DNA from: an uncultured Planctomycetaceae bacterium | GTDB lineage: Bacteria; Planctomycetota; Planctomycetia; Isosphaerales; Isosphaeraceae | DNA: 64,000 nucleotides | Assembly: GCA_963833985.1 (NCBI GenBank) | Contig: CAWIAD010000002.1 | Location: forward strand, 6,432,001-6,496,000 | Direction of reading: 5' to 3' | In this document: one piece after another, positions 15,001 through 24,000 of the stretch | Position numbering within the stretch: position 1 is the stretch's first letter | Layout of the letters: every line of letters starts with the position of its first letter | Program-made: the position numbers

Positions 15001-18000
15001 GCGCTGGCGACCGACCGCGACGTGATCACATCCTGCCTGGAGACCTGCTGGCGGATCGACCCTGCCGAGGCCCGGCTGGTGATCGTGCCGAATACGCTGG
15101 AGCTCACCACGCTCTGGGTCACACAGCCGCTGGCCGCCGAGGTGGAGGCGCACCCCGAGCTGACTTTCGAGACCGATTTTCGTCCCCTTCCCCTGAACGC
15201 ATCGGGAACGCTCGAGCAGGAGCAGCTCTTCCCGGACAGCGTGCGCGGCCGCCGGCAGCGCCCGTCCCGCGGCGCGGTCAACGGCATGGCCGCCGATCGG
15301 CCGGGCATCATCGAGGCGCGGACCGCGGAGCGCGTGCCGTACCCCTGGTAGCGAGGTGCTCAAGTTGGCGATTTCCGAGACGATTGCCGCCGTGGTCTTC
15401 GACCTCGACGGACTGATGTTCGACACCGAGGCCCTGTTCTTCCGGGTCTCTTCCGACATGCTGGAGGCGCGGGGCCGGAGCTTCACGCCGCAGATCATGC
15501 GCGCCATGATCGGCCGGCGCTCGGTCGACGCCGCTCACGTGCTCAAGACCATGACCGGGCTCGACGAGCCGCTCGAGGTCCTGCTCGCGGACGTCCGGCA
15601 GCGGTTCAACGCCGAGATCGACACCGCCGTGCACCCCACGCCGGGGCTGATCCGCCTGCTCGACCGCCTGCACCAGCACCGCCTGCCGTTGGCCGTGGCC
15701 ACCTCGTCGCGGCGGGCCTACGCCGAGCAGCTACTGGCGCGGCACCGTCTGCTCGAGCGGTTCTCGTTCATCCTGGGCGCCGAGGACGTGACCCGTGGCA
15801 AGCCCGACCCGGAGATCTACGCCACCGCCGTGCAGCGGTTCGGCGTTCCCGCACGTACAGTCCTGGTGCTGGAAGATAGCCCGGCGGGTGTGGAGGCTGG
15901 CGTGCAGGCCGGCACGGTGGTCGCTGCCATTCCGCACGAGCACAGCCCGGAGACTGGCCTGCACGCCGCGCACCTGGTCGTCCCGCGCCTGGACGACCCG
16001 GCGATCTTGCGGCTGTTCGAGCCACGCATCTCCGATGTGGGCAGGGCCTCGTCATGACATCGACCGGGCCGCAGCCGCTGGAGCCGCAGATCCGGCCTTC
16101 TGAACAGGGCCGCATTGATGCCGGATGGCGGGCGATGGTGCCCTACCTGGCTCCCATGCTGGTGTTCCTGGTCCTGACCAGCCTGGAACGCTACGTGCCC
16201 GCCCCGACGTGGTATCCGCTCGCCTATAGCCTGAAGATCGTTCTGGTCACCCTGGCCGCCTGGGCAAGCCGTTCCACATGGTCCGACCTGCGTCCTGTTC
16301 CGCCGTTTGGAATGCTGCTGGCCGGTGTTGTGACCGGGTTGATCGTCTTTGTGCTCTGGGTCGGGCTTGAAGGCTGGTATCCGGAGCTTGGCTTCCTGGG
16401 CAAGCGCACCGGATTTGATCCCTCGACGTTGAGCCCGCGCTGGAAGTGGCCGTTCCTCGCGGTCCGCATGGCGGGCCTGGTGCTACTGGTCCCGCTCATC
16501 GAGGAGCTGTTCTGGCGGTCGTTCTTGATGCGCTGGGTGATCGATTCGGATTTCTGGAAGGTGCCTGTCGGCCAGGTGACGCCGCTGGCCGCGGGGGTCA
16601 CTTCGGTGGCCTTCGCGCTCTCGCACCCCGAATGGCTTCCCGCGCTGCTGACCGGCCTGCTCTGGGCGTGGCTGCTCTGGCAAACGCGCTCTCTGCTGGC
16701 GTGCCTGCTGAGCCACGCCGTGGCCAACCTGGCGCTCGGTATGTATGTGCTGGCTACGGGAGCGTGGAAATACTGGTGAGGAGCACATCGCAGCAGCGGT
16801 GGGCCTGAAGCAACGTCTGCTGGAAGGGTCCGTTGCTCGGGACTGGCGCGGATCGGCCCCTCATGGATGCTGCCATTGCCCGGGCGCGGACGAGCCGGCT
16901 CCCGCATCGAGACGACGTATCAAGCTCTTGAATTGCTCCGCGGAGCTTGTCGCCTGAAATGCCAGCCCCGCCTCATACATCCCGCTCGTGGTCGGCTTGA
17001 CCCGCAGGATCTTCATGGCGTACCAGCGCGTCTGCACGGGCTTGACAAGCTGGACCAGGACATCCTCGTGACCTGGCATTTCGTGCAGGGCGATCAACGC
17101 ACCTCCCTGGCTGAGATTCAGGATCCGTGCGTCGATCTTGTGAATCGTCTCGCCAGCCCACCAGCCCATGAAAGCCTCGTTCGGCGCAGTGGGATAGCGA
17201 GGGTGCGCGCGGCGATCCACGCGGGCGATGGGTGAACCATCGCCAGTGACTGATTCCACTTCCGGGGGATCGAGTGAATTCGAGACCTTGAACGAGTGGT
17301 TCGAGATGAACATGACCTTGCCGCTCCTGAGGTGTCAGTGACGGAAACCGCGGCCAGCCGAAGCCGAGGGACTCCGTAAGCTCCGGCCTCGTGGGTCCGG
17401 CCTCGTGGGACAAGATTCCAGTGCGCCGTGGAAAGGTGTTGGTCTTCAGTGGGTGTAACTCCCACCCGGCAACTGGGTCGCTCCAGCCGGTAGCTATCGG
17501 AGCGGCGGTGGAGGAGACGAAACCGTCGGAGCCTTCGAGACAGATGTGTCGCTTGGCGATGCAGCGAACCGACAGGCCGTAACGCGAGTGAACGTTGAGC
17601 AGGCCTCGAAAAGTCCAATGTGGTCGCCGACCTTGCTGGAATATGGGGAAGGCCGCCGTCGCTGGGGATGAAAGGGAAACGGTTGGAATAGGCCGCCCCA
17701 CGAGCGATCAGAACCCAGCGGGCCACCGGGGTATTGACGACGGCATGTCGGCACACGGAGATCAACACAACACGGGAAACCCCAAGCGGTGAGGGCGCGT
17801 GACCCTCAACCGGACGCCCGCGAGGGACCGGCCGGGCTGCCTGGGGTGGCGGAGAGGCCCGTAGTACCGTCGACGCCGGGTAACTCCGGTCGAGGGAAGG
17901 GGCCTTGGTTCAAGGTCAACGCAACAAGCGGCAGACAGCCGGGAGATTGGCGTGAGTCTATCACCTCCACTGAAGGTCGGGAAGTTGCAGACGGCGTTGC

Positions 18001-21000: not shown

Positions 21001-24000
21001 GATCAGTGCGATGACGACGCGCCAGACCACTGGACAGGACGTCGAGATGCAGATTGGTCGGATCAATCGCAAGTTACGCGGTTGGTCCAACTATTTTCGC
21101 ATCGGAACGGTGAGCCCAGCCTATCGCCAAGTCAACCACCACGTCCGCTACCGGGTACGTCAGTGGTTGTGTGCGAAGTTCAAGGTGCCGGGTCAGGGGC
21201 TCAGACGCTACCCTGACAGATACCTGCACCAGGAGTTGCATCTTTACCAGCTGCAACGAACCTAGCCGCGATGGTTTCGTGAGCGAACGTGTGAACTCAA
21301 CCGATGAGACAAGCCTTGTCCGAAAGCTGGATGCGGGAAAACCGCCCGTCCAGTTTGATGAGCGGGGTGTGGAAACGAGGCCCAGCCGAGCCATCGACTC
21401 GAGCCCACCGCGCCACACCTCGACTCTACGTCTTGTCACTTAAATAGATAATTGTACTTAAATCTGAAGAGACAAGATGGGAATCTTGTTCCGCGAGAGA
21501 GGCTCAAGAGTCAACGGCCGAGGCTCGGCGGCGTCACGTCAGCCAGTTCCAATGTTGTCATCTTCTTGTTCCGCATACCCGGCCACGACCATCAGCCTCT
21601 GATTGTCCCCCCTTGCCCTTGTGGGACAGGCTCCGATCAAGCGGTTTCCCTCATCATGACACTACTTCAAAACGAGGAGATTGACGAATCGCCGGGGCTC
21701 AACCGCGGGTTGAAAAGATCAACGCGGGGGACTTGTCGGTGTACGCCGCTTCATCGGATTGGGCGCTGAATACGGCCCTGAGGAAGGCCGGGTGCGCGAG
21801 CGGCGTGTCGGTTCGTCAGTGACTTTTTGTCTCGATCCTGGCAAAGGGAGCGCCGGGAAAGGCGAGGTCCAGCAAAGCGTTCGGGTTCGGGAATCGGCTC
21901 GCAGAGTGTGATCGCCTCATGCGGCGTCCCGGCTGCGTCGGCAGGGACGGCGGCCAGGCACCCGGCCGGTTTCTCCGCGAAAACCGGCAGTGACAACGAA
22001 AGCCGCATCATCCCCACAAATGACAAGGTCTTCGCTTGCAAAGCCTGGATTCATTCGGCACGATGGATTGCCAGGCAAATCAGCACTCAAGGGAAAGACG
22101 CCTGCGGCGCTCGCCGTTTGTGTACTTGAGATACGCGTCACGCCCGGTGCAAGAAGGCATTCGCAGCTTCCGCTCGACCGGGATTCCGCTTCGTGGGAGG
22201 GCTTCATGAGTCGCATCGGGCTACTGGGTTGCGCCGCGGCAATGGCCGTGGCTCTGTACGTCCTTGCAAATGGCCCGGGGGCCAAGGCGCAAGAGCCGCA
22301 GCCGCCTGTGAATATTGATTTCGAGGAGGTCGTCGCGGCCGCCCGGAGCGCGGGGCGCACCGCGGGCCGTCCAGTCCGTTTCGTGATTTCAACGAGGTCA
22401 CCCGCCAGGCCGAGAAGGTGGAGGGGCTGTTCACGCTCTACAAGACGGGCGATCATCTCTACGCCGAGGTCCGTCCCGACCAGTTCAACCACCCGCTGCT
22501 CACGCCGGTGACCATCGCGCGCGGCATGGCCCAGGCGGGAATGCCCGTGGGCGACGACGACCGCGTGCTCATCTTCCGCCGCGTTGGCGACCGTGTGCAG
22601 ATCGTACAGCGGAATATCCATTACAAGGCGCCTGCCGGCACCCCCATCGAGAAGGCGGTGAAGCAGAACTACACCGATTCGGTCCTCATGGCCTTGCCCA
22701 TCGTCGCCATGAACCCGATGCGCGGCGGCGCGGTGCTATTCGATCTTTCCGACCTGTTCATGACCGATTATGCCGAGCTGGGCCTGGGCGCGATTGACCG
22801 TAGCCGCAGCCAGTGGACGAAGGTGAAAGGCTTTCAGAACAACATGGAGCTGGAGCTCGAGGCCACGTACAGCGGCGGTGGATTCCGCCGCGGGGGCATG
22901 AGCCGGGGCATGGGCGGGCCAGACCCGCGGGGCCTCACCCTGGTGCTGCATTACAGCATCATGCGGGCGCCGGGGATGGATTACCGCCCGCGCGTGGCCG
23001 ACGACCGCGTGGGCCATTTCCTGAGCGCCACCAAGGATTTCGGCCTCAACGATTCGGACACCAACTTCGTGCGTTTCATCAACCGCTGGCAGCTCAAGAA
23101 GTCTGAACACGGTGCCAGGCTTTCCCCTCCGCGGAAGCAGATCGTCTGGTACGTCGAGGACACCGTGCCCACCGAGTACCGCCCGTACGTCGAGGATGGC
23201 ATCAGTGAATGGAACAAGGCGTTCGAAAAGATCGGCTTCCGGAACGCGATCGCCGTCCGCTGGCAAGAGGAAGGGCGCGACGACTTCGATCCCGAGGACA
23301 CCAACTACTGCACGTTCCGCTGGGTGGCCAGTGAGGCGGGCTTTGCGATGTCGTGCCTGCGGGCCAACCCGATGACCGGGGAGATGATCGACGGCGACGT
23401 GATCTTCGACGCCAGCTTCATTCGGTACTGGAAGCAATCGTACGCACTCCTCATCGGCAGCACGACCACGGCGTCCGGCCAGTCCCAGGCGACCCCCCTG
23501 GCGTTCGGTGAGGTGATCAGCCCGATCCTGGCCTCGAAGATGGGCTTCGGCCAGCCGAACTCGCGCAAGCTGCTGGGCCTGAGCGCGCTCGACAGGCCCG
23601 CGGGGCAGATGGTCGCCGAGGCCGTCCCCTCGGACGAGGACTACCTCCGGTGGCAGCTTGCCAGGAACCTGGCCCGGGGCACGCGCGGCTTCTGCCAGTT
23701 CCAGACCGGCTTCCAGCACGACTTCGGCCTGGCCGCGATCGCCCTGGCCGATGCATCACGCACCGACCCCCCCAGGACGGACAAGGAAAAAGAGAAAGAC
23801 AAGGACAAGGCCCCAAAGAAGCCGGAGCCGAAAACGGAGTTGCCCGAGGAGTTCATCGGCCAGGCGATCAAGCACATCGTGATGCACGAGGTGGGCCACT
23901 CGCTGGGCCTGCGGCACAACTTCAAGGCCAGCACTATGCTCACGGCCGACCAGCTCAACGACACGTCGATCACCCGCACCAGGGGCCTGGTCGGCAGCGT

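Follow-up and report, generated by a model that had tools for sequence, protein, structure and literature searches.

A 2-kb serine-recombinase element inserted at one codon of group II intron reverse-transcriptase genes

A 2,013-bp element made up of a 66-aa ORF, a large serine recombinase (LSR) and 20-bp inverted repeats inserts site-specifically at PQGxx|hSP codons of group II intron reverse-transcriptase (RT) genes, both in the genome studied here and in relatives. One copy lies in the window, i.e., the 64,000-nucleotide stretch of DNA that was analysed. Judging from its sequence, this is probably a minimal, IS-like integrative element, which would be excised as an LSR-made circle, carry a palindromic mimic of its target as attP and insert either way round at the intron RT codon. 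Such an element would be a DNA-recombinase hyperparasite of group II introns, a parasite of another genetic parasite, and offers one possible reason for the many bacterial intron RT genes that are found in two pieces. Our literature search returned no published description of it, and parts of two Wolbachia WO papers (PMC9203015, PMC13439711) contain no mention of the element.

A blastn search against the genome returned the 11 full-length copies reported in the survey's finding, 99.9-100% alike and with exactly the starts given there (Table 1), and each of them is bounded on both sides by a perfect 20-bp terminal inverted repeat. As had also been described, nine copies interrupt one codon of an intron RT gene (I233, GTPQGAP-I-SPLL), seven in direct and two in inverted orientation, and two uninterrupted introns carry the empty site. 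An AT at both junctions was found in 10 of the 11 copies but not, as claimed, in all; the solo copy C2:5865421 shows AT on the left and TT on the right, and a 1-bp insertion shifts its recombinase frame near residue 460. Both solo copies had been placed at look-alike sites. The site of C1:1741775 is indeed target-like, its score against the target profile being equalled by 0.26% of random genomic sites, but for that of C2:5865421 the likeness is not clear (5.2%). The only traces of the twelfth copy proposed earlier are 16 bp of repeat with which C2 opens and the 3' half of an intron with which C1 opens; its orientation is unreadable. A promoter scan gave no sigma-70-like sites and two terminator-like sites, both at shuffle level.

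Table 1 Features of the composite intron in the window and starts of the element copies in the genome.
Feature	Position	Strand	Basis or remark
Intron target, 5' exon side: left part of REP-like hairpin repeat	17399..17420	+	last 6 nt likely IBS1
Composite group II intron (1,994-nt intron, 2,013-bp element, repeated AT)	17421..21429	+	
Rfam group-II-D1D4-4 match	17447..17587	+	98.9 bits (cut-off 49)
Intron RT gene, 5' half, residues 1-232	17952..18649	+	TIGR04416, partial; ends GTPQGAP + AT core
Left junction (attL-like): AT core and 20-bp inverted repeat	18648..18669	+	
2,013-bp serine-recombinase element	18650..20662	+	blastn copies
Start-less 52-codon frame, LSR C-terminal tail	18650..18808	+	stop overlaps small-ORF ATG (ATGA)
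66-aa small ORF	18805..19005	+	conserved motif V-x-x-x-F-E-P-x-R-L..A-Y..P
LSR, 550 codons inside element	19012..20662	+	stop-free up to right end; in this orientation the frame extends to 20886
Right junction (attR-like): 20-bp inverted repeat and AT core	20643..20664	+	
Intron RT gene, 3' half	20663..21265	+	ISPLLSN..YADD..maturase domain
Intron domains V and VI	21322..21429	+	Intron_gpII (21322-21404), 41.2 bits (cut-off 40); fold z -3.9
Element copy starts, contig C1	775208, 1741775, 1996864, 2834779, 3093685		blastn
Element copy starts, contig C2	1012722, 2144983, 5369156, 5421167, 5865421, 6450650		blastn

The host is a group II intron by its ribozyme domains, its GUGYG..AY ends and an RT/maturase ORF with YADD. 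Its ends (GTGCG..CTAC) lie slightly inside the bounds of 17401..21441 previously given for the composite. The Rfam matches and the two RT halves (RVT_1 on one side, RVT_1 and GIIM on the other) flank the element as had been stated; the insertion breaks the RT and sits in the ORF loop, with the ribozyme domains whole. The consensus of the intron's own target is an 8-bp stem with the intron inserted in the loop, and 33 uninterrupted matches with up to 2 mismatches are present in the genome. The complement of the last 6 nt of the target occurs at 17637 and 17684; an exact complement search of the intron gave no EBS2.

The related loci compared are the best-scoring part of larger sets, which numbered 548, 118 and 572 candidates and were cut to 80; some of the loci share a genome, and the loci are not independent. 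In line with the earlier claim that relatives are flanked by the same split RT motif, the junction motif was found in 76 of 136 related loci (2 doubtful) from six phyla, and 47 loci lack it. For 79 distant loci, 32 had been said to be without the motif; a recount in the same kind of 79-locus set gave 51 in which one flank or both have the motif (2 doubtful), 23 that lack it and 5 with no usable flanks. The RTs of the invaded introns are mostly just ~25-45% identical to that of the window, and the insertion codon is nonetheless the same. All 105 elements with both ends measured are 1,804-2,113 bp long (median 2,005) and hold the small ORF and the LSR only. Insertion in either orientation was borne out, with 32 direct and 20 inverted PQGxx|hSP sites, window included (p=0.13 against 50:50). 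In one genome (G007), a 97%-identical element occupies different introns in both orientations as well as a sulfatase gene, and one intron there holds the element in both orientations.

In contrast to phiC31 and Bxb1, the left and right crossover dinucleotides are unequal in 16 of 52 two-sided sites. Among the cores are AC and AG, which in reverse complement correspond to the starts of Val and Leu codons, and one intron within one genome bears the core pairs AG/AT and AT/GT (L060, L126). Unequal cores could also arise by homologous exchange between copies in different introns, or by later mutation. A second RT gene in the present genome offers a well-scoring site with a CT core that is not invaded, which fits a preference for matched cores. 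Such exchange between copies does take place, as seen from 5'-5' and 3'-3' junctions in 4 loci and from the reciprocal chimeras L222/L223, and it shuffles RT halves.

The recombinase matches PF00239 Resolvase, PF07508 Recombinase and PF13408 Zn_ribbon_recom, all above cut-off, and carries a YARVS motif and four Cys. Its best solved relatives are phiC31 integrase and YokA (E 4e-8 to 1e-6). In 112 of 113 loci, the LSR frame continues past the right end without a stop. At the left end, the tail frame, with the motif N-x-A..(I/V)xRxxLRPxYG conserved in the alignment, is open for at least 30 codons in 99 of 104 loci, compared with 7 and 43 for the other forward frames and 47-55 for the reverse frames. 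The phase is correct for an in-frame join of LSR and tail in 113 of 115 loci. The gene is split over the element ends and joined in frame only when these are joined, and therefore would be whole only on a circle; a circular intermediate is implied by this split frame. A search of sequencing data listed 20 runs, all in the form of contigs and none sharing half of the query words. No circle joint was among the joints listed in four of these contig sets, where assembled contigs cannot show absence. A TAnnnT peak near the left end of relatives was considered as a signal and set aside, as codons of the recombinase tail explain it better.

The small ORF is a candidate excision cofactor or regulator. 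It matches no Pfam family and, in the ESM Atlas, only unnamed clusters below 0.9, and its AlphaFold model has one helix (pLDDT 59.6). Its profile shows no likeness to that of the LSR tail (probability 0.3%), and the notion of a strand mimic was therefore abandoned.

We propose that the LSR excises the element as a 2-kb circle, the joined ends of which would form a symmetric attP, a palindromic look-alike of RT-motif DNA reading G-G-V-I-T-P-P in the RT frame. This circle would recombine in either orientation with an attB formed by the codons PQGxx-h-SP-x-L-x-N of intron RT genes, with the crossover falling on the first and second base of codon h. As the LSR gene spans attP, the tailed form would be made only from the circle, and tail and small ORF may together switch the LSR between integration and excision. 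The enzyme, we infer, tolerates unmatched crossover dinucleotides, so that Ile, Leu and Val codons would all be open to one element. These proposals amount to testable exceptions to two textbook rules, that of the matching central dinucleotide and that of direction control by a separate cofactor alone. A possible register shift between the outer motifs of attP and attB was best at 5-6 bp on one arm and ambiguous (4 or 7) on the other, and we make no claim of it.

The description of the family as parasites of group II introns needs widening: several subclades have mobile or repeated sequences of other kinds as their sites, namely intron domain V, IS256 and IS91 transposases, HARE-HTH genes and REP-like hairpins. 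Pfam backs the labels IS256 (L057, L208), HARE-HTH (L134, L137) and IS91 (L075) only; DV, REP-like, GIY-YIG, IS5 and D1 are presumptive labels given by eye from motifs. The domain V match of L067 is below the Rfam cut-off (25.5 vs 40), and L035, L097 and L039 gave no intron match. Trees were built with FastTree on 112 loci, the remaining 25 of 137 being excluded for broken frames, and with IQ-TREE on 41 hand-picked rows; both are unrooted, and a direction of target change is argued for nested clades only. A non-specific transposon, TnpX/TndX-like or IS-like, that is found in introns merely because insertion there is tolerated would account for the two solo copies, for off-target copies in a sulfatase gene (L002) and a Fic gene (L027) of relatives and for the motif-less loci. 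However, one codon is hit in introns with RTs as diverged as those described above, five of six off-target sites in relatives and one of the two solo sites score against the target profile at a level reached by no more than 0.4% of random sites (two rows being one site read both ways), the motif-less loci mostly form clades, each with its own fixed target, and DUF4368 is absent. The non-specific reading is thereby largely refuted, and we regard it as highly improbable.

The claim that the composite intron itself has multiplied in this genome is favoured by one SNP. Intron column 1245 is C in all seven direct composites and A in the two inverted ones and the two empty introns (Fisher p=0.003; p=0.028 for invaded copies only). 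Other SNPs conflict with purely clonal descent: 831 and 1990 cut across the direct, inverted and empty classes, and element SNP 848 ties the window copy to C1:3093685, while intron SNPs 1641/1905 tie C1:3093685 to C1:775208. A larger repeat that would include the composites was rejected, because likeness between the flanks of their sites ends within ~300 bp. Most likely, the seven direct composites descend from one invaded intron, and it is close to an even call that they spread via trans-acting RT from the two intact intron copies. Cargo of more than 1,000 nt can drastically reduce intron mobility (PMC3898094), which we counted against clonal composite spread; if the composite does retrohome, it would be a natural intron with a 2-kb cargo, whereas engineered introns cope poorly with loads of this size.

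In an alternative that we regard as unlikely, the introns dispersed first and every intron-borne copy of the element then integrated independently, without any movement of the composite as a unit. The inverted and solo copies represent independent movement, the G007 intron holds both orientations, element and intron SNPs are incongruent, the 7:2 orientation bias alone is not significant (p=0.18), and identical inner introns in the diverged outer introns of T. elongatus twintrons were interpreted in this way (PMC2882425). Against this stands the perfect link of 1245C with direct orientation: if attP is symmetric and the AT core palindromic, a base of attB should not set orientation, because the central dinucleotide does so in Bxb1 and phiC31 (PMC5159548). 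Gene conversion, to which we assign a similarly low probability, would have composites overwrite empty introns by way of the identical flanks (1.2 kb and 0.8 kb), possibly in a homing-like manner once the LSR had cut the empty site abortively. It accounts for the marker 16 bp from the junction being transferred along with the element and for the mosaic of distant SNPs, and exchange between copies is seen in relatives; yet a single informative marker near the site gives no conversion-tract gradient, and the abortive cut is a purely hypothetical break. The assembly breaks at one copy and polishing can mix repeat alleles, so that copy number, SNP pattern and chimeric flanks might reflect mis-assembly of a 4-kb repeat. 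This is very improbable, as every copy has its own flanks, several have private SNPs, and junctions of this type are also present in isolate genomes that are complete (L003, L101, L120, L126).

The element shares a three-domain enzyme and a 2-bp crossover with phage-type LSRs (phiC31, Bxb1, SPbeta SprA/YokA) and with gene-targeting LSRs (PMC10083194). As with the prolyl isomerase and Mg-chelatase targets (Durrant et al., PMC10083194), diverse enzymes here converge on one conserved coding site; the main text and 8 supplements of that paper name no RT or intron target. Unlike phage-type LSRs, the element has no phage or conjugation genes and spans just 2 kb, its attP is a palindrome of the terminal repeats with the gene spanning it, insertion takes both orientations, and the target is another mobile element; the 105 elements (1.8-2.1 kb) have no room beside the small ORF and the LSR for the other functional modules of a phage or large island. 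In phiC31, mismatched central bases block joining (PMC5159548), whereas the 16 unequal cores show that a matched, orientation-fixing dinucleotide is not always kept at attL and attR here, other causes being possible.

Tn4451/Tn4453 (TnpX), Tn5397 (TndX) and Tn6104 are LSR-driven, with a 2-bp repeated target and circular forms, and the element shares the 2-bp target at both ends. Besides cargo, these transposons bring genes for mobilisation or conjugation, and they fall in the multi-targeting clade marked by DUF4368, whereas no Pfam match or ORF in the element corresponds to DUF4368, mobilisation or conjugation, and its specificity is for one codon. In Tn5397 an intron lies inside the transposon; here the element lies inside the intron, and the order of nesting is reversed. 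Tn6104-6106 are nested inside another element (PMC3158075). IS607 serine transposases and the IS110/IS1111 elements with REP or attC targets resemble the element in being IS-sized, multi-copy, built on recombinase chemistry and aimed at repeated sequences, as ISPpu9 is at REPs. The LSR, at 550 codons, reaches 26.3 bits for the IS607 family (cut-off 110) with no TnpB ORF beside it, and IS110 enzymes have a different fold and RNA guides. Scores against cut-offs for SCCmec Ccr and cyanobacterial XisF were likewise low (CcrB 103/900, CcrC 86/900, XisF 102/375). T. elongatus twintrons and ORF-less introns (PMC2882425) also have a second element at a fixed intron-ORF site and RT-defective introns mobilised in trans, but the inner element here is a DNA recombinase element that is not spliced out. 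No Rfam match was found inside it. Integrase genes that contain attP, with integration altering the C-terminus of the enzyme, occur in Myxococcus phage Mx8 and in archaeal SSV1-type elements, all tyrosine recombinases. In the element, integration would likewise change the C-terminus of the enzyme, which is a serine recombinase; no attP-containing serine-integrase gene was among the results listed by a literature search.

More tentatively, these elements may form an undescribed family of 2-kb "LSR insertion sequences" on other mobile DNA, in which terminal repeats evolve to mimic targets, mismatched cores are joined and a circle-completed LSR serves as direction switch, with a 4-kb composite riding intron RNA here and chimeric RTs built by exchange; we hold this broad picture possible rather than probable. 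Related LSRs (~40-60% identity) with known different targets and matching attP repeats form a natural series that would give a direct map of specificity change. In the present genome, an older decayed composite that the survey's finding did not list is located at C2:4627310-4628477, with the element 81% and the intron 95% alike.

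The element is real. It encodes a 66-aa ORF and a large serine recombinase (LSR; domains Resolvase, Recombinase and Zn_ribbon_recom) and splits the intron reverse-transcriptase (RT) gene at codon I233 (GTPQGAP-I-SPLLSN), with AT on either side; the empty site was read from two intact introns of the genome. The survey's finding of 11 near-identical copies held: they are 99.9-100% alike, their 20-bp terminal inverted repeats are perfect throughout, and nine interrupt the RT gene at this one codon, seven in direct and two in inverted orientation. Sixteen bp of the repeat at a contig start may mark a twelfth copy. 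AT had been described at both junctions of every copy, and both solo copies, which lie outside introns, had been placed at look-alike sites. The former applies to ten copies, the exception being a solo copy whose junctions read AT/TT and which also carries a frameshift. Its site bears no clear likeness to the target, since 5.2% of random sites equal its target score, against 0.26% for the other solo site, C1:1741775. Beside the latter, an open frame with what we take to be NUMOD4/HNH-like sequence extends to the insertion site. A decayed, older composite (intron plus element) shows that a sister intron had been invaded before.

Coordinates of the element, its host intron and associated features (L-numbers, individual loci; C2, contig of the source genome; window, C2:6432001-6496000)
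Feature	Location	Description
Group II intron (composite)	window 17421-21429	GTGCG start, CTAC end; Rfam D1-D4-4 and domain V/VI matches
Element, 2,013 bp	window 18650-20662	between the two halves of the intron RT gene
ATGA	window 18805-18808	stop of recombinase tail overlaps small-ORF start
Hairpin target	window 17399-17420 + 21430-21441	REP-like, 8-bp stem; intron sits in loop
1.2-kb repeat	window, near 33850-35060	at least 12 near-identical genomic copies; another lies ~290 bp right of the C2 solo copy (L081)
Decayed composite (L082)	C2:4627310-4628477	sister intron 95%, internal deletion; final 393 bp of an element 81% identical, at the same RT codon
1,284-bp element (L084)	C2:2147542-2148825	breaks RT gene 3' end of one inverted composite; two more copies in genome; intact intron 3 kb downstream
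Second, distant group II-type RT gene	C2:4725768-4726874	36% identity; well-scoring target site, CT core, uninvaded
RT halves broken near residue 173 (FFD-type motif)	L003 2060-2692; L006 6418-7167; L012 2080-2829; L038 1928-2902	adjoined by a different LSR; in L003 and L038 one intron apparently bears both LSR element kinds
Element in apparent lone intron 5' (domain I) fragment	L039 3575-5690	GTGCGC start; single case, no Rfam support
Family member on TOL plasmid pWW53 (L227)	76006-80510	frameshifted, between benA and xylS; two further recombinase genes 0.7 kb away

Relatives were collected in three scans of genome contigs, keeping the best 80 of 548, 118 and 572 candidates, and duplicate removal left 136 distinct loci, which are not independent because several come from one genome. 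Element ends were located with a profile of the terminal repeat; lengths of the 105 elements with both ends run from 1,804 to 2,113 bp, and in most relatives a small ORF with a common motif precedes the recombinase. Recurrence of the RT-motif insertion in many phyla was borne out at 76 of the 136 loci (L012 and L029 doubtful), in Planctomycetota, Pseudomonadota, Chloroflexota, Acidobacteriota, Spirochaetota and Vulcanimicrobiota. With the window excluded, the motif flanks both sides at 31 direct and 20 inverted loci, at three with two 5' halves and at one with two 3' halves, and a single side at 21, the two doubtful loci among them; it is absent at 47, and 13 have no usable flanks. Relatives at E<1e-60 also occur in 48 plasmid records, including those of pWW53 and another P. 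putida plasmid.

The description of the family as parasites of group II introns needs widening, as other clades lie at transposases, HARE-HTH genes and hairpins. In unrooted trees (FastTree, 112 of 137 rows; IQ-TREE, 41 chosen rows), most loci without the RT motif group in clades having their own sites: the IS256 transposase C-terminus (L057 and L208, by Pfam; 88/65, including an IS5-like case, 100/100), HARE-HTH genes (L134, L137; 100/100) and REP-like hairpins, recognized by eye (100/100). Further targets are an IS91-type transposase (L075), a GIY-YIG gene (L054, by eye) and intron domain V (L035, L067, L097; 100/100); in L067 a whole intron RT gene is present upstream, and the element completes the domain V hairpin with its left end. 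Both the domain V and the GIY-YIG cases look derived because they are nested within RT-targeting lineages (100/100 and 98/94), the unrooted tree leaving the ancestral target unfixed.

In 112 of 113 loci no stop interrupts the recombinase frame up to the right end, and its phase fits an in-frame join over the 2-bp core, the crossover dinucleotide, in 113 of 115. At the left end the joining frame stays open for 30 codons or more in 99 of 104 distinct ends (7 and 43 for the other forward frames) and carries a conserved motif, that of the recombinase tail. For the window element, the predicted recombinase would be 603 aa long on the circle, 624 aa after direct and 598 aa after inverted insertion. 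This split frame is the best evidence for a putative circular intermediate, and the division of the gene across the ends suggests a direction switch.

When joined, the ends create a palindrome that translates as G-G-V-I-T-P-P in the RT frame and whose inner 8 bp are similar to each arm of the RT site (mean match ~0.5 per base). Palindromic ends resembling both arms would permit insertion in either orientation; with the window included, 32 direct and 20 inverted cases were counted (p=0.13). Left and right cores are unequal in 16 of 52 two-sided sites, and the odd cores include AC and AG, the reverse complements of Val and Leu codon starts. On the simplest reading, the circle would keep the core of its previous site and the enzyme would join a mismatched core, comparable to the coupling sequences of Tn916. 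Against such joining, the CT-core site in the second RT gene of the same genome stays empty, and exchange between copies can also produce unequal cores. In phiC31, mismatched central bases inhibit joining (PMC5159548).

Rearranged copies occur in G007, another genome carrying relatives, where five copies, 97% identical, occupy two introns and a sulfatase gene (some already among the counted loci), and one intron holds the element in both orientations. Two copies in opposite orientation, 15 kb from each other (L222/L223, G007:C63), have reciprocally swapped RT halves, as might be expected after an inversion. Similar shuffling was seen in L037/L038/L040.

Hairpin, intron and element form three nested layers. 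The REP-like hairpin occurs at 59 sites genome-wide, in short arrays with ~41-bp spacing. Every intron copy sits at the identical base of such a hairpin, each at a different locus, and 33 free hairpins with at most two mismatches exist. That the composite intron itself has multiplied, as the survey proposed, is partly upheld. At intron position 1245, which lies 16 bp from the junction, all seven direct composites carry C, and the two inverted and two empty introns carry A (p=0.003). Since a symmetric attP (the joined ends) should not let this base fix orientation, common descent of the direct composites is favoured by the marker; however, the relic intron also has C, and element SNP 848 and intron SNPs 1641/1905, 831 and 1990 disagree with one another.

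Spread of the composite by retrohoming is a realistic, if tentative, explanation: introns lacking an RT are known to be mobilised in trans (PMC2882425), and cargo is best placed in domain IV, although a load above 1,000 nt can lower efficiency sharply (PMC3898094). Gene conversion between intron copies, which we consider rather unlikely, would fit the link to the near marker and the distant SNP mosaic equally well. Repeated integration of the element seems similarly doubtful, and assembly effects are very improbable.

In how it works the element resembles an LSR transposon or integrative element, but it differs in the defining features tested from phage integrase systems, from TnpX/TndX elements and from IS607, Ccr and XisF. 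Titles and abstract openings yielded no published description, in a search that took in neither journals behind a subscription nor ISfinder, the intron database or the supplements on bioRxiv. The parts of Durrant et al. (PMC10083194) covered, including a term search of eight supplements, name no RT or intron target, though unnamed attB rows could include one; a term search of PMC7306698 found no mention of a recombinase.
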